Positions 2,805-24,367 of a DNA stretch of 27,483 nt are shown in pieces. The stretch comes from Candidatus Micrarchaeia archaeon (lineage in GTDB: Archaea > Micrarchaeota > Micrarchaeia > Anstonellales > J096), in contig JBGQMB010000009.1 in NCBI GenBank assembly GCA_041500405.1, forward strand, positions 1 to 27,483, in the 5' to 3' direction. The position numbers and the translations under genes are program-made. Numbering within the stretch: the first letter of the stretch is position 1; each line of letters begins with the position of its first letter. Under the pieces are notes generated by a model. It saw only the letters and a list, made by a program, of their open reading frames with translations. It had not been told where the DNA came from and made no database searches.

Positions 2805-2828
2805 CTTACCTTGCACAATTTTGTTTTT

Positions 2829-4321
<1,493 letters not shown>

Positions 4322-4580: not shown

Positions 4581-4609
4581 TTTTAACCCCTTTTATGCAT
4601 AATAAAGCC
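4581..4609 (+). promoter_or_regulatory. Cluster promoter cassette 1 (TTTTAA-N11-CATAAT-N6-ATG)
   Basis: TTTTAA 4581-4586, CATAAT 4598-4603, ATG 4610. Confidence 0.75.
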
Positions 4610-5179
4610 ATGGCCCAAAGGCTTAGCGATTCCGGCATTGCAAGATACCTTCACAAAGCAAGAAAAACTCTATTCCACAACCTGAAGTCTGAAAAACTGA
4701 GAAGGATCGTCAACAATAAGGAACAGAAGCGGCTTAACGACAGTCTATTGAAAGCGGCAACTTTAGGTAGGATAAAGAGAGTAGAACAGTTGCTGAAGCT
4801 TGGTGCGGACATAAATACAAGTAATTACACGGACGGCAGCACCGCGCTGATTTTAGCAGCGAGGTACGGATATACCGAGGTCTGTGCGTTGCTGACTGAA
4901 AAAGGCGCAAACATGGAGGCAAAGGAGAGATTCGGCAAGACCCCGCTCATCTTTGCCGCACATAATGGGCACATCGAAACCTGCGCACTGCTGATAGCGA
5001 AAGGCGCAAATATACACGCAAAGGACATTCACGGCATGACCGCGCTCAGGTATACTAAATTACACGGCAGAAAAGAGACAACTACATTCCTTGAGTTCGC
5101 GCATGATGCATTAAGGCTTTTCGCGAACAGGGAAATGTTCGGTTCGTTCTATTCAAGCTTCAAGGCGTGCATCCAATAG
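4610..5179 (+). CDS. Ankyrin-repeat protein 1
   Basis: GSTALILAARYGYTEVCALL, GKTPLIFAAHNGHIETCALL, GMTAL repeats; start moved to ATG 4610 on promoter spacing; ends FGSFYSSFKACIQ. Confidence 0.92.
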   Translation: MAQRLSDSGIARYLHKARKTLFHNLKSEKLRRIVNNKEQKRLNDSLLKAATLGRIKRVEQLLKLGADINTSNYTDGSTALILAARYGYTEVCALLTEKGANMEAKERFGKTPLIFAAHNGHIETCALLIAKGANIHAKDIHGMTALRYTKLHGRKETTTFLEFAHDALRLFANREMFGSFYSSFKACIQ

Positions 5180-5181
5180 CG

Positions 5182-5210
5182 TTTTAATCCCTTTTGCGCA
5201 CAATGAATGC
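5182..5210 (+). promoter_or_regulatory. Cluster promoter cassette 2
   Basis: TTTTAA 5182-5187, CACAAT 5199-5204, ATG 5211. Confidence 0.75.
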
Positions 5211-5789
5211 ATGGCCCAGAAGCTCGGCGAAACAAATAAAAAAAGCCCAAGCAAACAGCTTAATTTAGCCAAGCAAAAATTATCCACGGATAAAAGATTG
5301 ATTAGCCCTGAAAGGCAGGAACGGCTTGATACCAGTCTATTGAGAGCAGCGCCGAAAGGCAAGACAAAGATAGCAGAAAGGCTGCTGGCGCTTGGCGCAA
5401 ACATAGAAGCAAAGACAAATAACGGCGAGACTGCCCTGCACTTAGCCGCAAATTATGGATGCACCGAAACAATTCGGTTCCTTATATCCAAAGGCTTTGA
5501 CGTAAATGCAAAGGACAACAACGGCTGGACCCCGCTCATGCATGCCGTAGTGAATAACCACAGAGACGCCTGCGTAGTCCTGATACAGAAAGGCACAAAT
5601 ATAAAAACAAGGTGCGATAGTGGCTTTACCGCGCTCATGCTTGCCGAATCATATTATACAGCCCCTGAAGATGAATCAGAAAAAGATGAGATAATAGAAT
5701 TCCTCAAATTGATGGAATTGGTTAGTTCAGTGGTTGAGGACAAGGCATTCATCCCTTTTATGGTTTCCTTTGCCAATTGCATCCAATAG
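5211..5789 (+). CDS. Ankyrin-repeat protein 2
   Basis: GETALHLAANYG, GWTPLMHAV, GFTALMLA repeats; ends FIPFMVSFANCIQ. Confidence 0.92.
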   Translation: MAQKLGETNKKSPSKQLNLAKQKLSTDKRLISPERQERLDTSLLRAAPKGKTKIAERLLALGANIEAKTNNGETALHLAANYGCTETIRFLISKGFDVNAKDNNGWTPLMHAVVNNHRDACVVLIQKGTNIKTRCDSGFTALMLAESYYTAPEDESEKDEIIEFLKLMELVSSVVEDKAFIPFMVSFANCIQ

Positions 5790-5791
5790 CA

Positions 5792-5820
5792 TTTTAACCT
5801 GTTTCATCCACAATTGAAAC
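5792..5820 (+). promoter_or_regulatory. Cluster promoter cassette 3
   Basis: TTTTAA 5792-5797, CACAAT 5809-5814, ATG 5821. Confidence 0.75.
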
Positions 5821-6495
5821 ATGGCAGAGCGCAAGAGACTCCGCGAAAGGGCGGCGGAGCTAACGAAAAAGTCGGTTTCATTGCTGAAAAAGCTGAATCC
5901 CGAGCCTGCGCTGTCCCGCCTCAGGCTGAACCACAAGCTTGTGAGGGCGATATCTCCATTAATCATAAACAGGATAGACATAAATATAGTTGACTGGAAC
6001 CTTGTGAAAAATCTCATCGTTGCAGGCGCAAACCCAAACATGAGACTGGATGACGGAAATCGTACTCCTCTTCTTGCCCATGCCGCGCGGTTTGGTGATA
6101 CGAAGAGCTTATGCAGGCTTCTGCTGGAAAAAGGCGCAAAGGTCGACTTAAAGAATAAAGAGGGCTATACGGCGCTCGCGGCCGCCGCGAATGATGGGCA
6201 CACCGATATCTGCAAACTGCTGATTGAAAACGGCGCCAACATCGAAGGATATAACAAAGATGGCATTACCCCTCTTATGCTTGCCGCGCAGGATGGACAT
6301 ACAGATACGTGCGCCCTTCTTATTGAAAACGGCGCCAACATCGAAGTGAAAAACAAGAAATATGGCGCAAATTCGCTTATGCTTGCCGAATCAGGGGGGC
6401 GTACAGAAGCAGTAAGAATCCTTAAGTTGGGCCTCCTGCTTGGAAAGGACGGATTCAGGTCGTTCCGCGCTAATTTCAGGGAATGCGTCCAATAG
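5821..6495 (+). CDS. Ankyrin-repeat protein 3
   Basis: GYTALAAAANDGHTDICKLL, GITPLMLAAQDGHTDTCALL repeats; ends FRSFRANFRECVQ. Confidence 0.92.
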   Translation: MAERKRLRERAAELTKKSVSLLKKLNPEPALSRLRLNHKLVRAISPLIINRIDINIVDWNLVKNLIVAGANPNMRLDDGNRTPLLAHAARFGDTKSLCRLLLEKGAKVDLKNKEGYTALAAAANDGHTDICKLLIENGANIEGYNKDGITPLMLAAQDGHTDTCALLIENGANIEVKNKKYGANSLMLAESGGRTEAVRILKLGLLLGKDGFRSFRANFRECVQ

Positions 6496-6498
6496 CAT

Positions 6499-6527
6499 TT
6501 TTAACCCCTCTTATACACAATGAGCCT
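6499..6527 (+). promoter_or_regulatory. Cluster promoter cassette 4
   Basis: TTTTAA 6499-6504, CACAAT 6516-6521, ATG 6528. Confidence 0.75.
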
Positions 6528-7478
6528 ATGCCTGAAAAATTGATGGCCAAAAGGCTTACGCGCGGCATGGCCGCGAAAAAGCCATTGATATCATCCAAGC
6601 TGAAGGACATCATCGAAAACACGCCTTCGGCGCCGGCCCTTGCAAACAAAAGAGGCAGGAAAAAGCTCACGATACAGGATATTCAAAGGATGGCAAAGGA
6701 AAAATGGGGCAAATGCCTTTCCAAGGAATACGTAAATTCACATACCAGGCTAAGATGGCAGTGCGGCAAAGGCCATAAATGGAAAGCGATTCCAAACAGC
6801 ATATGCCAGGGGCACTGGTGCCCTCGTTGCTTTTATGAAACCATTAGGCCCAGAAGCATGCTGACAATCGAAGAAATGCACAAAATGGCAAGGAAAAGGG
6901 GCGGAAAATGCCTTTCCAGGGAATACGGCGGTTCATTCACCAAGCTAAAATGGCAGTGCAGGAAAGGCCACGTATGGCTTGCCATCCCCCACCATATCAG
7001 GCAGGGGCACTGGTGCCCGCATTGTGCGCATGAAAGCAGGAGAACGATAAAAGACATGCAGAAAATAGCAAGGAAAAGGGGCGGAAAATGCCTTTCCACT
7101 GCGTATGTCAGCAGGGACTCAAAGCTAAGGTGGCAGTGCGCGAAGGGCCACGAATGGGAAGCGCGCCCGGAAAACATAAAACGCGGAAGCTGGTGCCCGA
7201 AATGCGCGGCCGAGGCCAGGGCGGCCAAGAAAAAATTCACAATCGAACAGATGCGGAAAATAGCAAGGAAAAGGGGCGGAAAATGCCTTTCCACTGTATA
7301 TGTCAGCACGCTTTCAAGATTAAGGTGGCAGTGCAGGAAAGGACACGAATGGAATGCCTTCCCCGGAAACATCATTTACCATAAAGAATGGTGCCCGGAT
7401 TGCGCCAAGGAGAAGAGGAGAGCCCACAAGGTTGTGAAAAAAGCGGCAAAGAAGAAAGGAAAAGCAAGGAAAAGATGA
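6528..7478 (+). CDS. Basic protein with four tandem zinc-ribbon (C-x3-H...C-x2-C) repeats, probable nucleic-acid binder
   Basis: Four 60-65 aa units: TI-x2-(M/I)-x3-A-x2-(R/K)(G/W)GKCLS-x2-Y-x5-(K/R)L(R/K)WQC-x-KGH-x-W-x-A-x-P-x2-I-x4/5-WCP-x-C; K/R-rich termini; start moved to ATG 6528. Confidence 0.88.
   Translation: MPEKLMAKRLTRGMAAKKPLISSKLKDIIENTPSAPALANKRGRKKLTIQDIQRMAKEKWGKCLSKEYVNSHTRLRWQCGKGHKWKAIPNSICQGHWCPRCFYETIRPRSMLTIEEMHKMARKRGGKCLSREYGGSFTKLKWQCRKGHVWLAIPHHIRQGHWCPHCAHESRRTIKDMQKIARKRGGKCLSTAYVSRDSKLRWQCAKGHEWEARPENIKRGSWCPKCAAEARAAKKKFTIEQMRKIARKRGGKCLSTVYVSTLSRLRWQCRKGHEWNAFPGNIIYHKEWCPDCAKEKRRAHKVVKKAAKKKGKARKR
6888..7293 (+). repeat. Intragenic 31-nt direct repeat x3 (GCAAGGAAAAGGGGCGGAAAATGCCTTTCCA)
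   Basis: Exact copies at 6888-6918, 7068-7098 and 7263-7293 (spacing 180 and 195 nt), all in frame. Confidence 0.9.
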
Positions 7479-7500
7479 CACAAGTCTGCTTCAGCGTTGT

Positions 7501-7529
7501 TTTTAATGGCTTTGGCGCATAATATCTCC
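7501..7529 (+). promoter_or_regulatory. Cluster promoter cassette 5
   Basis: TTTTAA 7501-7506, CATAAT 7518-7523, ATG 7530. Confidence 0.75.
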
Positions 7530-8120
7530 ATGCAGGAAAGGAAACCATTGCCTGGGGATGCGCCTAAGATGCGCACAAAAAGGAGCATCCAAGAGCCTGC
7601 GCCAACAGAGAAGCCAAAATTATCGGAAGACGATCAAAAGTGGTTCAATAAAAAGCTGCTGGAGGCCGCCACATGGGGGAAAACATACGAAATCCAACGG
7701 CTGCTGGAAAAAGGTGTGGATATCAACGCAAGAGATGAGATTCTCGGTAGAACTGCACTAATGTGGGCCGCAATGGGCGGCCACACCAAGGCATGCAAGC
7801 TCCTGGTTGAAAAAGGCGCAAAAATTGATGAAGAGGACGACAATGAGGGCATGAATCCGCTCATGTACGCCGCATTGACCAGCCGGACCGACATCTGCGC
7901 TTTCCTGCTTGAAAAGGGCGCGGATTTGGAGACAAGGGTTACGAAACAAACATCTGAATATTATGGCATGACTGCGCCTATGATTGCTGAAATGATAGCT
8001 GCAAAGCTTGGCCATACCAGAATCGTGCCGTTCCTAAGATATATGAAATCTATGCATAAACAGTTTGGCAGCGAAGGGCTGAAAAAGTTCTTTTTGGATT
8101 TCAGGGAATGCCTCTCCTAA
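7530..8120 (+). CDS. Ankyrin-repeat protein 4
   Basis: GRTALMWAAMGGHTKACKLL, GMNPLMYAA repeats; start ATG 7530; ends LKKFFLDFRECLS. Confidence 0.92.
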   Translation: MQERKPLPGDAPKMRTKRSIQEPAPTEKPKLSEDDQKWFNKKLLEAATWGKTYEIQRLLEKGVDINARDEILGRTALMWAAMGGHTKACKLLVEKGAKIDEEDDNEGMNPLMYAALTSRTDICAFLLEKGADLETRVTKQTSEYYGMTAPMIAEMIAAKLGHTRIVPFLRYMKSMHKQFGSEGLKKFFLDFRECLS

Positions 8121-8125
8121 CAATA

Positions 8126-9643
8126 CTACAAAAATTCCGAAAACTCGTTCTTCCTGTTCTTTTCCTTGCCTTTCCACTCGCTTATCATGTCCCCGAGCCC
8201 GGTCTTCTTTCCGTCGGCGACCTTCTTGCCCCTTACGCGGAATATCAGCGGAGACCTGACCGCCTCTCCGACAACAACGGCTTCCCCGACCTCCAAGCCA
8301 GGAAGCATGCCCATCAAGGACGAAGTCAAATTCTCTGAGCCCCTTTTTATGAAATCCAAATCGTTCGGGTTCGCAATCCTCAGGAAAACGTGGGTGTTGC
8401 ACTGGCTCAGTGCTGTCTGCGAAAGGTGCGCCGGCCTCTGCGTAATCAGGCAGATGGAAATCCCGAATTTCCTGCCTTCGCGCGCTATCTTCTCGACCTG
8501 CGACTTTGAGACATTCTCCCTTTTCTCCGCCTTTTCAGGGGCGAAGGTGTGCGCCTCCTCTAAGAAAACAACAACAGGCGGAATCCTTCCGGCTTTCCGC
8601 AGCTCAAACAATTGCTTCAATATGTAATATCCCTTGACTATCGCAGAGCGCGGGTCGTCCATCTCGGAAAAGTCAAAAACAAGCATGTGCCCAAGCTTGA
8701 CTTTCGAGACAAGGTCCGGGTGCCTTTCCTTCCCGATTATGCCCCTTCTGCCAAGCGAGCCGAACCTGCGCTTCAAAACGCCGTAAGTCCCGCCGGACTT
8801 CTTGTCAGCTTCGTTGGCGGACATGGTGTCTATTATGCCCATCAGCGTCGCCTCGTCCTGCGGCGCCTTCTCCGCGGCCATCTTCTCGTGCAGCGCCCCA
8901 AGCACCTGCTCCATCTTCTCCTCCTGCGCCTCGCTAGTGTCGGGGTAAAGCTCCTTCATTATGCCCATGCTCGCGTCCGCAGCGCCCATCCTTATGCTGT
9001 TTGCGCCAATCCTCTCAGTCCGCGGGCCGAACGTCTTGTCAGAGGCAAAATCAACATATTCCCCGTGCATGTCCAGCACAACGACGGCAGGCGCATCAGG
9101 GCTTGAAAGCAGCTCCTCAAGCATGACTTTCGTGAAATAGCTTTTTCCAGCCCCGCTCATGGCAAGCACCGCGGCATGCTTCTGGAACATCCTTTCGATG
9201 CTGAGGCTTACGCCAAGGCCGTGCGCCTCTATCTCCCCGAGTGCCATCCCGCCCTGCTTGAACCCGAAGAACCTGCCCAAAAGCTCGTTGTCCGCGACCA
9301 TTATCGCGGTGCCGGGGGAAACCGAAATCGTCGAGCGCCTGAAGCGTTTCTCCTTGTCCACTATGCCAAAAATGTCAACGTCCGCAACCGTGCTTTCGCC
9401 TTCCTTCACAGGATAGGCATCAGCGACGTTTCCGACAAAGCTGACGTCCTGTACATCTGAAAAGTAGATGTTCATGCTCCTTATCTCGGATATCATGCCT
9501 ATGGCGTGCCTTTCGCCGGGCAATTCCGCCTTTATGTACATGCCCTTCTGGATTCCAGCGCCCTTCTCCGCTATGAACGAGAATGAGTGCGTGTTGGGCC
9601 TTTCCTGGCTGCTGATGGCAGTACCTATCATCATAAGTGCCAT
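8126..9643 (-). CDS. herA: HerA-family ATPase / DNA helicase-translocase
   Basis: N-terminal HAS-barrel-like region, Walker A AMSGAGKS, LDMHGEY, Walker B FLEEAH, REGRKFG, TQRP, SQCNT. Start at ATG 9643 (or 9634); the longer ORF overlaps a real + strand gene. Confidence 0.9.
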   Translation of the reverse strand: MALMMIGTAISSQERPNTHSFSFIAEKGAGIQKGMYIKAELPGERHAIGMISEIRSMNIYFSDVQDVSFVGNVADAYPVKEGESTVADVDIFGIVDKEKRFRRSTISVSPGTAIMVADNELLGRFFGFKQGGMALGEIEAHGLGVSLSIERMFQKHAAVLAMSGAGKSYFTKVMLEELLSSPDAPAVVVLDMHGEYVDFASDKTFGPRTERIGANSIRMGAADASMGIMKELYPDTSEAQEEKMEQVLGALHEKMAAEKAPQDEATLMGIIDTMSANEADKKSGGTYGVLKRRFGSLGRRGIIGKERHPDLVSKVKLGHMLVFDFSEMDDPRSAIVKGYYILKQLFELRKAGRIPPVVVFLEEAHTFAPEKAEKRENVSKSQVEKIAREGRKFGISICLITQRPAHLSQTALSQCNTHVFLRIANPNDLDFIKRGSENLTSSLMGMLPGLEVGEAVVVGEAVRSPLIFRVRGKKVADGKKTGLGDMISEWKGKEKNRKNEFSEFL

Positions 9644-9686: not shown

Positions 9687-9917
9687 ATGAAAGGACAGCT
9701 TTCCGCAGAAATGATAATCCTGGTGGTAGTGATACTCGCGATAGTCGCGATAGTGGCAAGCACGCTCATCTCCTCTGCAAAGGACACGAGCAGCTCGGTC
9801 ACGAACGCAACCACGAAGATATCCGAGAGCCTAGGCGCCATTTGCATAAAGGACGCGGACTGCACTGAGTTGGGCAGCGGCTACAGGTGCATCCAGGGAG
9901 AGTGCCAGCAGAAGTGA
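9687..9917 (+). CDS. Class III signal-peptide (type IV pilin-like) protein with Cys-rich C-terminus
   Basis: MKG|QLSAEM + hydrophobic helix (G|Q-x-S-x-E); tail C-x5-C-x8-C-x4-C. Alternative ATG at 9681. Confidence 0.85.
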   Translation: MKGQLSAEMIILVVVILAIVAIVASTLISSAKDTSSSVTNATTKISESLGAICIKDADCTELGSGYRCIQGECQQK

Positions 9918-10255
9918 AGGGCCAGGCTTCGGTCGAGTATATCATCCTTTTCGCGATAAGCCTAGTCATAGTGCTGATTGTGATAAACGCCCTGATGGTC
10001 CTCTCCGACTCGGTCGGGCAGTACAACAGCAAGCAGCGCTCCCTGCTTGCCAGGGATGCGCTTTTGTCGGCGGCAAGGGACGCATGCTACATCGGGGACG
10101 GGACGTCTTTTTTTGTTGAGCTGGGCGACACTGTCAACGTGACTGAAAACAAGGTAAACGGCCTTGTGTATGAACTTCCGTGCGAAATCGAGCCCGGAGC
10201 CTATAGGGACCGGGTCCTTGTTGAAAACCAGGAAAACAAAATAAAAATAGGCTGA
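9914..10255 (+). CDS. Class III signal-peptide (type IV pilin-like) protein
   Basis: GTG start overlapping the previous TGA (GTGA); MKG|QASVEY + hydrophobic helix. Confidence 0.85.
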   Translation: MKGQASVEYIILFAISLVIVLIVINALMVLSDSVGQYNSKQRSLLARDALLSAARDACYIGDGTSFFVELGDTVNVTENKVNGLVYELPCEIEPGAYRDRVLVENQENKIKIG

Positions 10256-21582: not shown

Positions 21583-23352
21583 TCATTCCAGCTTCAGGTC
21601 CTCTGCGCTTATCCTGCTTCCGAATTCCCTTATCAGCCTTTTCGCGTCGCCGTTGTATTTCTTAAGGAGCAAATCCAGCTCCTCTCCTGAAATCCTTCCG
21701 GCCAGCTCAAGCGCCTGCTTTTTCGTCTTTCCCGAGCAAACCAATTTCATATACTCGTAAATGCCCTTTTTCGTCAATTTTCCGTCCCTGAAAAGCAAAA
21801 GCGCCTCTTCCGTGATCTCTTCCGTGACGTTTATCTTCTCCCTGGAAAGCCTTGTCCAGGTGTCCTCCAAGGCAGTTGCCGCAACTGAAGCGTCAACGCC
21901 CTGCTCAAGCACAGACTCGAACAGCTGCAATTGCCTGCTCCGTATCATCTTTCCCGCAAGGTCCAGGTTTAGGATTCCGTTGAGCCATTCCAATGTTTTC
22001 TCATAAGTATCTGCCGCAATCCTATCCGCTTCCTTTTCCATCCCCTTGTCAATCTCAATCATTGGAATGTCAGTTTCAGGGTACATCCTTGCGCTTGTCG
22101 CCATCGGCCTCATGTAAGCGGTTGCGCCCGACGGAAGCGCCTGCCTTGTCTCTTTCGGTATTGTCTCAACAAGCGCCCTTTCCTTCAAATATCCCAATGC
22201 CTTGAGCGCTGTCTCCATGTTGGCAACAACTATGGCAAGCCCATCCTCTGCCTTCATGCCAAGCTCGTTTGCAATCTCGTTCAGAAAGTTAGCATTTATC
22301 CTGTATCCCGAAAGATCCTCGTCCGAATGGATTATGCCTTTCACGCCGGCCTGCTTCGCGTAATCCGAAAGCTCGGAGCCGTATCTCCTGTCAGGGCCAA
22401 TTTCCATCCCAAGGATGCCCTTATGGTGCGGCATGACGAGCGCAAGCGCCCTGTCCCCCCTGTCAAGCGCAGACTTCACAAACCCGTCAGAAACATATTT
22501 CCTAAGTATGTCCGTGACATCGGCAGGCTCCTGTTTTTTCAGCTGGCCATATGCCTTTTTTGCCCTCAATTTTTTAGCAATCTCCAGCAACGATTTCTGC
22601 CTTTTTGCCTCGTTCTCAACCCATTTGGGTATCATCCAAAGCTCCTGCGCGCCCTTTATTTCCACCCTGTTTCCGCCCTCTATGCTGACGTTGAGGTCCT
22701 GCCTTATTGTCCCTATTCCCCTTTCCGCGACACCCGCTATCCTCATCGCAAGGCCGATTTTCTCGGCGACCTCGGCGCAGTGCGCCTCATCCTTGATATC
22801 CGGCGCGGTCGTTATCTCTATAAGCGGTATGCCGAGCCTGTCCAGCGAGTAAACCCTTTTTCCCCCTGTTTCGCCTATTATGCCCGCGCTTTCCTCCTCG
22901 ATGCACAAGGTCTCTATCCCGACCTTTCCCTTTGACGTTTCAATGAATCCGTTCAATCCAAGCAGCATCGTCCTTTGGAATCCGGACGTGTTGCTTCCGT
23001 CTATCACTATTTTTCTCATGACAACCGGCCTGTCGACAACCTTCATGTTGAACTGCTTTGCCATGCCCAGCGCATAAACAAGCGCCTTCCTGTTCATCTT
23101 GTGCGGAGGTTCTTCATCAGCGTCAACAAGGCAGCAGGCATTGTCATAATAGTTGTATCCCACGCCCCTTCCCTTTTCCGCCTCCCTTCTTGCGGCTATG
23201 TCTATTTTTCCCAATTCAGAAAGCGAGAGGTGGAACTCGCGCGCCATCGTGCTTTGCGGAACGCCCTTTGCATAGGCGTGCGGGCAGTTGCAGAACAATT
23301 TCGCGGTATTGAGCCTTTGGTGCACCTCTATGCCAATCCTCAGACCGTCCAT
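21583..23352 (-). CDS. gatE: Glu-tRNA(Gln) amidotransferase subunit E
   Basis: GIEVHQRL, KLFC, DEEPPH, RKIVIDGSNTSGFQRT, LDRLGIPLIEI, RGIGTIRQDLNVSI, GAD insert (GIIHSDE), RMYPETDIP. Confidence 0.96.
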   Translation of the reverse strand: MDGLRIGIEVHQRLNTAKLFCNCPHAYAKGVPQSTMAREFHLSLSELGKIDIAARREAEKGRGVGYNYYDNACCLVDADEEPPHKMNRKALVYALGMAKQFNMKVVDRPVVMRKIVIDGSNTSGFQRTMLLGLNGFIETSKGKVGIETLCIEEESAGIIGETGGKRVYSLDRLGIPLIEITTAPDIKDEAHCAEVAEKIGLAMRIAGVAERGIGTIRQDLNVSIEGGNRVEIKGAQELWMIPKWVENEAKRQKSLLEIAKKLRAKKAYGQLKKQEPADVTDILRKYVSDGFVKSALDRGDRALALVMPHHKGILGMEIGPDRRYGSELSDYAKQAGVKGIIHSDEDLSGYRINANFLNEIANELGMKAEDGLAIVVANMETALKALGYLKERALVETIPKETRQALPSGATAYMRPMATSARMYPETDIPMIEIDKGMEKEADRIAADTYEKTLEWLNGILNLDLAGKMIRSRQLQLFESVLEQGVDASVAATALEDTWTRLSREKINVTEEITEEALLLFRDGKLTKKGIYEYMKLVCSGKTKKQALELAGRISGEELDLLLKKYNGDAKRLIREFGSRISAEDLKLE

Positions 23353-23388
23353 AAGACCAAATCACTCGTTAGGGTTAAAAGTCTTGCC

Positions 23389-23616
23389 TTATTTCAGCAG
23401 CACTTCCCTTACCCTGATGACGCCGCTTGGCGAAACCGAGGTTGAAAGGGCGATGCCAAGCTGGCTGAAGTATCCCTTCAGCTTTGCAGCGGAATAGCCT
23501 TTCGGCAGCTCCACGCTTACCTTAAAAACAGAATTAAGGGGCGTCTTCTCCTTTATCGCGCTTATCATCCTGTTGAACACAAGAAAAGCCCTTTCTTCCT
23601 CAGTATCCCCTGCCAT
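23389..23616 (-). CDS. Small hypothetical protein
   Basis: Fills the gap upstream of gatE; ATG 23616 preferred over 23646 because the AT-rich promoter-like tract is at about 23650-23660. Confidence 0.5.
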   Translation of the reverse strand: MAGDTEEERAFLVFNRMISAIKEKTPLNSVFKVSVELPKGYSAAKLKGYFSQLGIALSTSVSPSGVIRVREVLLK

Positions 23617-23680
23617 AAGGCGCACTTGCTGGGATAAGCCAGGCATCTATTTTAATAAGTTTCGCAATCATCAAACTGCC

Positions 23681-24367
23681 ATGGCCCAGAAGTCCTATCT
23701 TTTCCTGAAAGACAAGGTTTCCACCGGCATTTACGACCTGGACGTAATCCTTGAAGGAGGCTACCAGAAGGGCTCGTCCATTGCAATCATAGGCCCGCCC
23801 GGCATTGAAAAAAGCCTGCTTGGCATGCATCTCATGTCCTCGCAGAACGCGCTCAACAATTATGTTGCAATAGATTTTTCCCCTGATGACATCGAAAGGA
23901 AAGCCGAAGATTACGGGCTTTCGCTCAACGTCTCCAAATACATCGACATGTATTCCGTCCAGGCCGCGGTCGAGCCGAACAGGAACAGGGACATCGTCAT
24001 AGACGGCGTAACCGCGCTCAACGACCTCTCGCTTGAGATAAGCAGGCTCCTGAACGTGAAGGAGCAGGCGAATCCGATTAACTTCTATTTCCATTCCTTT
24101 TCATCCATGATGCTCGCGAACCAGTTTGACTCGCTGTTCAAGTTTTACCAGGTCGTTTCCGGCAGGATAAAGAGCGCGGAAGGGACGATGGCCATGCTGT
24201 TCGAGGAGGGGCTTCACGAAAAAACGCAGCTCAACACGTTCCTGAGGTCTGTTGACGCGACAATTGAGCTGAAGCAGGTTTCAAAGGGCAAGTGGGAGAT
24301 GTCTGTTTCAACGCTGGACACCCCGGTGTATTTCAGGATATCGACAGAGGGAATTGAGATAATGTAG
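23681..24367 (+). CDS. KaiC/RecA-superfamily ATPase-like protein (single domain, degenerate motifs)
   Basis: VSTGIYDLDVILEGG, GPPGIEKS (Walker A-like), IDMYS, LNDLSLEIS, VDATIELK; start ATG 23681. Confidence 0.85.
   Translation: MAQKSYLFLKDKVSTGIYDLDVILEGGYQKGSSIAIIGPPGIEKSLLGMHLMSSQNALNNYVAIDFSPDDIERKAEDYGLSLNVSKYIDMYSVQAAVEPNRNRDIVIDGVTALNDLSLEISRLLNVKEQANPINFYFHSFSSMMLANQFDSLFKFYQVVSGRIKSAEGTMAMLFEEGLHEKTQLNTFLRSVDATIELKQVSKGKWEMSVSTLDTPVYFRISTEGIEIM

Follow-up and report, generated by a model that had tools for sequence, protein, structure and literature searches.

The stretch of DNA analysed here, referred to as the window, comprises 27,483 nucleotides of Candidatus Micrarchaeia archaeon (contig JBGQMB010000009.1 of assembly GCA_041500405.1) and corresponds to contig C9 of an archaeal source genome (G000; 916,473 bases, 60 contigs, 86% complete). 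Between positions 4,610 and 8,120 it carries an array of four genes for ankyrin (ANK) repeat proteins which share a short C-terminal tail with an invariant cysteine (Table 1). The four proteins matched Pfam Ank_2 with E values from 2.5e-33 to 2.2e-22, and ANK-type families were the only Pfam families found at E ≤ 0.01. The predicted fold of the gene 4 product agreed with this assignment, as it was matched by designed ankyrin repeat proteins (DARPins) with Z scores of 20-21.5 and a root mean square deviation of 1.0-2.2 Å. An archaeal small-subunit rRNA gene is located at 2828-4321 on the minus strand. The DPANN origin of the DNA, proposed in a preliminary description made from the sequence alone, was borne out, since the closest named relatives of its GluRS were found in Candidatus Micrarchaeia/Micrarchaeota metagenome-assembled genomes (82% and 70% identity).

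Table 1. Coordinates of the ANK genes, their tails and further features of the window, and of tailed loci in the related genome G008 (aa, amino acids; HMM, hidden Markov model)
Feature	Position	Strand	Remarks
ANK gene 1	4610..5179	+	189 aa; leaderless-type start; Ank_2 E 2.5e-33
Gene 1 tail (HMM match)	5084..5176	+	codons F-7 at 5147, F-3 at 5159, Cys 5168-5170
ANK gene 2	5211..5789	+	192 aa; Pfam Ank_2
Gene 2 tail	5700..5786	+	Cys codon 5778-5780
ANK gene 3	5821..6495	+	224 aa; Pfam Ank_2; AlphaFold model m89e252cee3a9
Gene 3 tail	6403..6492	+	Cys codon 6484-6486; within predicted continuous helix
Non-ANK gene inside the array, between genes 3 and 4	6528..7478	+	four DUF4379 treble-clef zinc-ribbon repeats; no tail
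ANK gene 4	7530..8120	+	196 aa; Pfam Ank_2; AlphaFold model maf55acd0dded
Gene 4 tail	8028..8117	+	Cys codon 8109-8111; within predicted helix
HerA/DUF87 ATPase, convergent neighbour of the array	8129-9634	-	Pfam match
TATA-like TTTTAA boxes, ~29 nt before each ATG	4581-4586, 5182-5187, 5792-5797, 6499-6504, 7501-7506	+	
Tailed loci of G008	L142-L154, e.g. L147:971-1102, L149:624-755	-, + (examples)	

Tail motif, family size and distribution

The four ANK proteins had been described as ending in a common tag of the pattern (F/L)-x2-F-x3-F-x2-C-[IVL]-[QS]-stop. All four ends were found as quoted, and all belong to ankyrin proteins, but the pattern proved too strict for the family as a whole; it occurred in six of the 8,969 stop-to-stop open reading frames (ORFs) of at least 50 aa in the genome, all six of them ANK. 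Searches with the tailed proteins (phmmer) matched 60 ORFs in the genome, one of which (C29:6761-6919) was reached through in-frame upstream DNA only; 37 of the 60 carry the tail and 23 lack it. In these 37 tailed ORFs, on which all motif counts for G000 are based, the core motif reads F(-7)-x3-F(-3)-x2-C(0)-[IVLT]-[SAG], numbered from the Cys, with F-7 in 35/37, F-3 in 35/37 and the Cys in 37/37 tails. Upstream of the core, G occupies -14 in 20 tails, K -13 in 15 and E -12 in 17, whereas the inner positions are L 12, M 9 and Y 7 at -6, and E 19 and D 5 at -1. The Cys is followed by I 13, V 9, L 7 or T 5 at +1 and by S 12, A 10, G 8 or Q 4 at +2, so that the last two residues are not limited to [IVL][QS] family-wide. 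The hydrophobic or Phe residue that had been placed thirteenth from the end (ten residues before the Cys) is not conserved either (F 8, A 8, G 6, L 5). The Cys itself is indeed invariant, but it stands third from the end, as first proposed, in 11 tails, while 21 tails have it fourth, three fifth and two sixth (2, 3, 4 and 5 residues after the Cys, respectively).

A tail HMM of 32 positions, built from the tail alignment, retrieved 38 ORFs with at least 20.8 bits among 19,942 ORFs of at least 25 aa, the next best ORF scoring 9.7 bits. All 38 matches stop 0-3 residues short of the stop codon, which confirmed the supposed strictly C-terminal position. The tail was found on no non-ankyrin cargo, neither with the tail HMM in G000 nor among the examined ORFs of related genomes or the representative proteins described below. 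The family, its motif and the strictly C-terminal, ANK-only occurrence of the tail are thus established. The 38th match is a 40-aa remnant on contig C21. A genome-level search returned 39 matches in G000, the extra copy having its tail beyond an in-frame TGA. In this copy (G000:C8:23345-24043) the TGA stands where a paralogue has Trp (ORF 23345-23989) and an intact tail follows the stop, pointing to a recent truncation or possibly to read-through. Two short ORFs on the minus strand, C45:1128-1400 and C21:15819-15938, have kept the tail (C45 also the N-terminal part) and contain no ANK repeats; these are probably deletion remnants.

The search for the tail was extended to 41 relatives, comprising three genomes of the own genus (G000 and the two congeners G001 and G002), 16 genomes of the family's other genera and 22 genomes from other families of the order. 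The tail was present in 3/3 genomes of the genus, with 39, 81 and 28 matches in G000 and the two congeners (each ~1 Mb). The HMM matched in 0/16 genomes of the other genera and in 0/22 genomes of the other families. In a set of 401 genomes (155 genera) drawn evenly from the phylum, the tail occurred in G000 and G001 only. Among 1.84 billion representative proteins, 24 matches were obtained at E ≤ 0.001; 20 belonged to the same ANK family and had the tail at the very C-terminus, and the other four were repetitive low-complexity translations. Judged by these searches, the tail is restricted to the genus. Residues in the congeners were counted in the 40 best tail matches of the two genomes, of which 38 are intact (F-7 in 38/38, F-3 in 36/38; 2 residues after the Cys in 8, 3 in 23, 4 in 3 and 5 in 4), a further one carries a TAG and the last has Arg substituted for the Cys. 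In the congeners, all of the 13 longest-frame tailed ORFs that were examined encode ANK proteins, with more repeats.

No match to the tail was found in Pfam, NCBIfam or the sequences of the Protein Data Bank (PDB; none at E ≤ 10), NCBIfam giving sub-threshold ANK-repeat matches with none over the tail. Among these, models of Dot/Icm Ank effectors scored 57-62 bits against cut-offs of 500-600 and covered ANK repeats only. When the tail part of gene 4 was used for an ESM Atlas feature search, the highest scores (0.87, 0.86 and 0.81) all fell on unnamed clusters and below the lead level of 0.9. The literature on archaeal and DPANN ankyrins (supplements not covered) yielded no account of the family. 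The tailed ANK family is therefore apparently undescribed so far, as the preliminary description had supposed of its motif.

Conservation of the tail contrasts with the divergence of its DNA. Full-length tailed proteins are 25-39% identical to the gene 3 product, and the tailed paralogues are old. Over 25 codons of the tail, pairs of paralogues share a median of 41% nucleotide identity (5-95%: 31-58%), and synonymous codons are used at the conserved sites (TTC 29 and TTT 6 at each Phe, TGC 34 and TGT 3 at the Cys), approximately in the genome's usual proportions. The low identity of the tail DNA together with the synonymous codons shows that the two Phe positions and the Cys are under purifying selection at the amino-acid level, and the possibility that the motif is confined to recent paralogues with no such selection was rejected on these grounds. 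The same data ruled out that the tail DNA serves as a homology arm for cassette recombination or as an RNA element.

The tail HMM also failed to match in two further ANK-rich genomes, G020 (33 Ank_2 matches) and G008 (71 Ank_2 matches), the latter from a different genus of the same family. Of the 20 ANK ORFs of G008 that were examined, eight end in a different constant C-terminus. L(-7), L(-3), C(0) and K(+2) recur without exception in its aligned copies (8/8), and the 13-18 residues beyond the Cys apparently form a further helix. An HMM of this second tail matched G008 18 times; in the rest of the 41 genomes it gave a single marginal match (E 0.003). Homology of the G008 tail to the G000 tail was unsupported (hhalign probability 0.3%).

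Predicted structure and ankyrin surface of the tailed proteins

AlphaFold models were built with family alignments for the products of genes 3 and 4 (mean pLDDT 87.4 and 91.4), and the helix geometry was read from the predicted secondary structure and the aligned ranges. In both models the tail and helix 2 of the last repeat are predicted to form one unbroken helix, spanning residues 195-223 in gene 3 (pLDDT 92-97) and 165-195 in gene 4 (pLDDT 90-96). The first 32 residues of the gene 4 model are disordered, and the confidence of the tail is therefore independent of an N-terminal helix. Residues 34-178 of the gene 4 model are matched by whole DARPins with their caps (ends at 170-178; Z 20-21.5), whereas the conserved triad lies at residues 187, 191 and 194, beyond the aligned range. 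Since the DARPins align only up to 170-178, the ANK domain appears to be complete without the tail, with the triad on a projecting extension. We infer that the tail would be a straight helical extension past a complete ANK C-cap and not the cap itself. The alternative named in the preliminary description, a C-capping helix packing on the last repeat, thus found no support in the two predicted models.

Engineered shared-helix DARPin fusions were among the structure matches (PDB 5le6, 5lem, 5cbo), 5cbo aligning with residues 37-194 of the gene 4 model. In these fusions, as in the predicted tail, the helix of the C-cap runs on as a rigid straight helix, there into the next module; they are designed, however, whereas the archaeal extension is natural and ends after ~19 residues. 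The Foldseek and VIA searches returned ANK and DARPin chains only and were uninformative on the partner of the tail. A degenerate ANK repeat as the origin of the tail was rejected, with hhalign probabilities of 2% and 1.6% against two repeat profiles compared with 99.7% in a repeat-versus-repeat control.

The tails are amphipathic but not cationic. Their mean hydrophobic moment is 0.52 compared with 0.25 for shuffles, 26/37 tails exceeding 95% of their own shuffles, and with a mean net charge of -0.19 they are about neutral; the Heliquest-type lipid-binding discriminant of 0.68 was passed by 11/37 tails only. Packing against a protein therefore fits better than lipid binding. A homodimer prediction with two full-length copies of gene 3 and the family alignment, run with no controls, gave a score of 0.00 and a mark of 0.42 and is evidence neither for nor against self-association.

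The ANK repeats preceding the tail vary at specific positions. Across 94 repeats of the family, entropy was highest at model positions 6, 7, 9, 17 and 18 (3.2-4.0 bits) in the beta-turn and helix 1, which we take to be the canonical target-binding positions of ANK repeats that are randomised in DARPins, and was low (0.2-1.6 bits) at the framework positions. The notion of a variable binder with a constant tag was upheld by this pattern. In the second helix of the repeat, a Cys at model position 24 is unusually conserved (58/94 repeats).

Thirty-six of the 37 tail proteins have no transmembrane-like segment, and their N-termini are basic and hydrophilic. No 19-residue window in the tails reached a Kyte-Doolittle value of 1.6, as a tail-anchored membrane protein would, the single match lying in an ANK helix. 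ANK paralogues with an N-terminal hydrophobic leader (array on C25) or a lipobox-like signal (C37) are never tailed. By these sequence features the tail proteins would constitute a cytoplasmic class.

Candidate functions of the tail

We tentatively favour the reading that the tail is a constant docking helix which connects variable ANK binders to a common partner; the docking, the partner and the role of the Cys are what we infer. In its favour we count the conservation of the triad in G000 and the congeners, the strictly C-terminal, ANK-only occurrence, the predicted position past the C-cap, the dissimilarity to ANK repeats, the near-neutral amphipathic character, the variable ANK repeats, the cytoplasmic features of the proteins and the parallel tail of G008. 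The tail would be a lineage-specific amphipathic alpha-helix of ~20 residues, predicted to continue the last helix of a complete ankyrin domain, and would carry on one face a hydrophobic stripe with the invariant core Phe(-7), Phe(-3) and Cys(0) at i, i+4 and i+7, followed by an aliphatic residue. While the ANK surfaces would be diversified for different targets (38 copies in G000, 81 and 28 matches in the congeners), the shared helix would fit a hydrophobic groove on one common partner, a protein or an assembly of the symbiont or the host, and many specificities would thereby be coupled to one function. The Cys would make a specific contact that cannot be replaced by Ala, Ser or Val. Helix-in-groove motifs with an i, i+4, i+7 hydrophobic triad, of which the p53 helix bound by MDM2 is an example, are likewise short amphipathic helices with three hydrophobic side chains along one face. 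The likeness is purely geometric, with no sequence relationship.

Several points weigh against a docking helix. No partner is known, and the 258 ORFs next to the arrays include no recurrent non-ANK gene family, with just one cluster of two members among them. Hydrophobic stripes at i, i+4, i+7 spacing are a common feature of amphipathic helices in general, and the helix geometry derives from the secondary structure and aligned ranges of predicted models rather than from coordinates and contacts. Some family members have lost the tail, such as the copy with a TGA at the Trp position (C8:23345-23989), and one natural congener copy has Arg replacing the Cys. The G008 tail is not detectably homologous, and the parallel may be a coincidence. 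If the two tails were related or convergent, the functional core would be the hydrophobic-x3-hydrophobic-x2-Cys helix and not nearness to the carboxyl end.

The helix might also be a purely structural extension that stabilises or solubilises the ANK stack or packs intramolecularly and has no partner at all. This explanation, which we consider unlikely, would agree with the contiguity of the tail with the last ANK helix in a high-confidence prediction, with its occurrence on ANK proteins only and with the lack of a genomic hint of a partner. However, DARPins with their C-cap align with the gene 4 model up to a point short of the triad, as described above, 23 of the 60 ANK-family ORFs do without the tail, the tail HMM is silent in the ANK-rich genomes G008 and G020, and an invariant Cys is not expected from packing alone. 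A C-terminal translocation signal, by which cytoplasmic ANK effectors would be sent into the host through a DPANN-host connection or a non-Sec route, appears rather improbable. It would account for proteins that lack signal peptides and, in 36/37 cases, a transmembrane segment, for the strictly C-terminal position and for a huge, diversified, tandem family as is typical for host-interaction genes; moreover, bacterial type IV secretion substrates use C-terminal signals with acidic and hydrophobic residues. On the other hand, no secretion machinery could be linked to the tail. The neighbouring HerA/VirB4-like ATPase, a link suggested by the preliminary description, is represented by HerA-like ATPases in 32/41 relatives, tailed or not, and is therefore unrelated to the tail. 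The absence of a recurring neighbour and of any non-ANK cargo, unusual for a general export signal, likewise speaks against translocation, and secretion signals are loosely defined, unlike a rigid and highly conserved helix. As a degron or quality-control tag at the C-terminus, the tail would govern how fast members of the family are turned over; this is extremely unlikely, although the strictly C-terminal position and several tails ending in Ala-Ala or Ala-Ser would suit it: the last residues are the least conserved, the conserved helix lies 3-10 residues upstream, and no protease link was found.

Lipidation of the Cys had also been suggested. The Cys would then carry a prenyl or other lipid group, attached in a CaaX-like way by either the archaeon or its host, and would anchor the ANK protein to a membrane; we regard this as very unlikely. 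In favour of the suggestion is the ending of a majority of tails, 21/37 in G000 and 23/38 in the congeners, where the Cys is fourth from the C-terminus and aliphatic-small-X-stop comes after it. The remaining tails (16/37 and 15/38) have it at -3, -5 or -6, so that over all tails the number of residues after the Cys varies from 2 to 5. A CaaX motif has an aliphatic a2 residue and an X suited to farnesyltransferase or geranylgeranyltransferase type I, whereas +2 of the tails is S 12, A 10, G 8 or Q 4 and X is K, R, G or H in 9/21 four-residue endings. With the variable spacing and the small or polar residue at +2, canonical CaaX therefore fits a minority of tails. Also in favour, a polyprenyl synthase and an M48 peptidase are encoded in the genome, which further has a UbiA enzyme, as is a 227-aa ICMT/PEMT-like membrane methyltransferase (G000:C57:1786-2037; L042:1432-2115, minus strand); this methyltransferase scored barely higher for ICMT (39.4 bits) than for PEMT (37.5 bits). 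Prenyltransferase alpha and beta subunits (PF01239, PF00432) and an Rce1-like/CPBP protease (PF02517) were not found in the 86%-complete genome, and there was no credible DHHC match in it (15 bits). The ICMT family occurs in 3/3 genomes of the genus and 0/16 in the family's other genera, which would favour lipidation, but co-occurrence with the tail was rejected, as it concerns one lineage only, does not hold in other families, where 8/22 tail-less genomes have ICMT, and fails in the Cys-tailed G008, where ICMT is absent. In G008, furthermore, the Cys lies 13-18 residues from the end, which speaks against CaaX-type recognition if the two tails are related or convergent. As a precedent, AnkB of Legionella, an ANK effector that also has an F-box, is described as carrying a C-terminal CaaX motif which the host farnesylates (PMC2916131). 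AnkB resembles the tail proteins in being an ANK protein of a host-dependent microbe with a Cys few residues from the C-terminus; the archaeal tails differ in the Cys spacing of 2-5, the small or polar a2 residue, the conserved Phe-Phe helix before the Cys and the prenylation enzymes not found in the genome. For the archaea covered by a review, CaaX domains and prenyltransferases are tabulated as absent (PMC4917890).

A close organisational parallel to a constant docking helix on variable binders is provided by ANK proteins of poxviruses, Orientia and Wolbachia, in which a C-terminal PRANC/F-box module docks on a common partner (PMC4353913, PMC4148323). These large, expanded, host-linked families likewise combine many paralogous ANK binders with one constant C-terminal module. 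The window proteins, however, gave no PRANC, F-box or SOCS-box match at E ≤ 0.01. The archaeal tail is a single predicted helix of ~20 residues and not a domain of ~40-50 residues, and the known hosts of this archaeon are archaea without SCF ligases. ASB-type proteins combining ANK repeats with a SOCS box provide no match either: the BC-box of the SOCS box needs L-x3-C-x3-hydrophobic and thus at least four residues after the Cys, whereas 32/37 tails end 2-3 residues after it and have S, D, N or P at -4. Tripartite C-terminal sorting signals (MYXO-CTERM, CGP-CTERM and similar) resemble the tail in being short, lineage-specific C-terminal tags with an invariant Cys on dozens of proteins per genome, but consist of a motif, a transmembrane segment and an Arg-rich cluster on exported proteins. 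The tails have 2-5 residues after the Cys, 36/37 of their proteins lack a transmembrane segment or signal peptide, and no CPBP protease was found in the genome.

To our knowledge, host manipulation and attachment by DPANN archaea with ~1 Mb genomes are largely unknown. Tail matches numbering 39, 81 and 28 in genomes of ~1 Mb, on diversified binders without export signals, are a large investment for reduced genomes and point to a central role in the symbiosis. A constant docking helix with an invariant Cys would offer an experimental handle for the common partner or a modification, and opens the question of whether tagged effector families like those of intracellular bacteria and poxviruses also exist in archaeal symbionts. 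Were the tail only a structural extension, the finding would be reduced to a lineage-specific ANK subfamily. In a more speculative proposal, to which we assign a rather low probability, ANK-expanded genera of Micrarchaeota would each add their own Cys-bearing constant helix to dozens or more of diversified binders, F-x3-F-x2-C in the genus of G000 and L-x3-L-x2-C with a second helix in that of G008. The helix would be the address label of a DPANN-specific effector system, for handover to a common machine or for crossing the symbiont-host junction, in which the Cys would possibly form a covalent or metal-mediated bond; this would be a protein-tagging system undescribed in archaea.

Gene neighbourhood and promoter layout

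The ANK genes and the DUF4379 gene between genes 3 and 4 form a tight head-to-tail array with stop-to-next-ATG gaps of 31, 31, 32 and 51 nt. The product of the DUF4379 gene has a Lys/Arg-rich C-terminus, and its gene is preceded by the same upstream box as the ANK genes. On the plus strand next to the HerA-like ATPase gene, two small proteins are encoded at 9687-9917 and 9887-10255, whose signal peptides are of class III (type IV pilin-like; 24.8 and 32.3 bits).

In the gaps of 31-32 nt, the TTTTAA box of the next gene begins 2-4 nt past the previous stop. The pattern TTTTAA-N~22-ATG was found at 52 sites in the genome compared with 0.2 in shuffles, and 47 of these sites precede an ORF of at least 50 aa. 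A promoter specific to the family was rejected, as 17 of the 47 ORF-linked sites, identified with a crude regular expression, precede ORFs that are neither tailed nor ANK. The layout is therefore a general leaderless-promoter layout of this genome.

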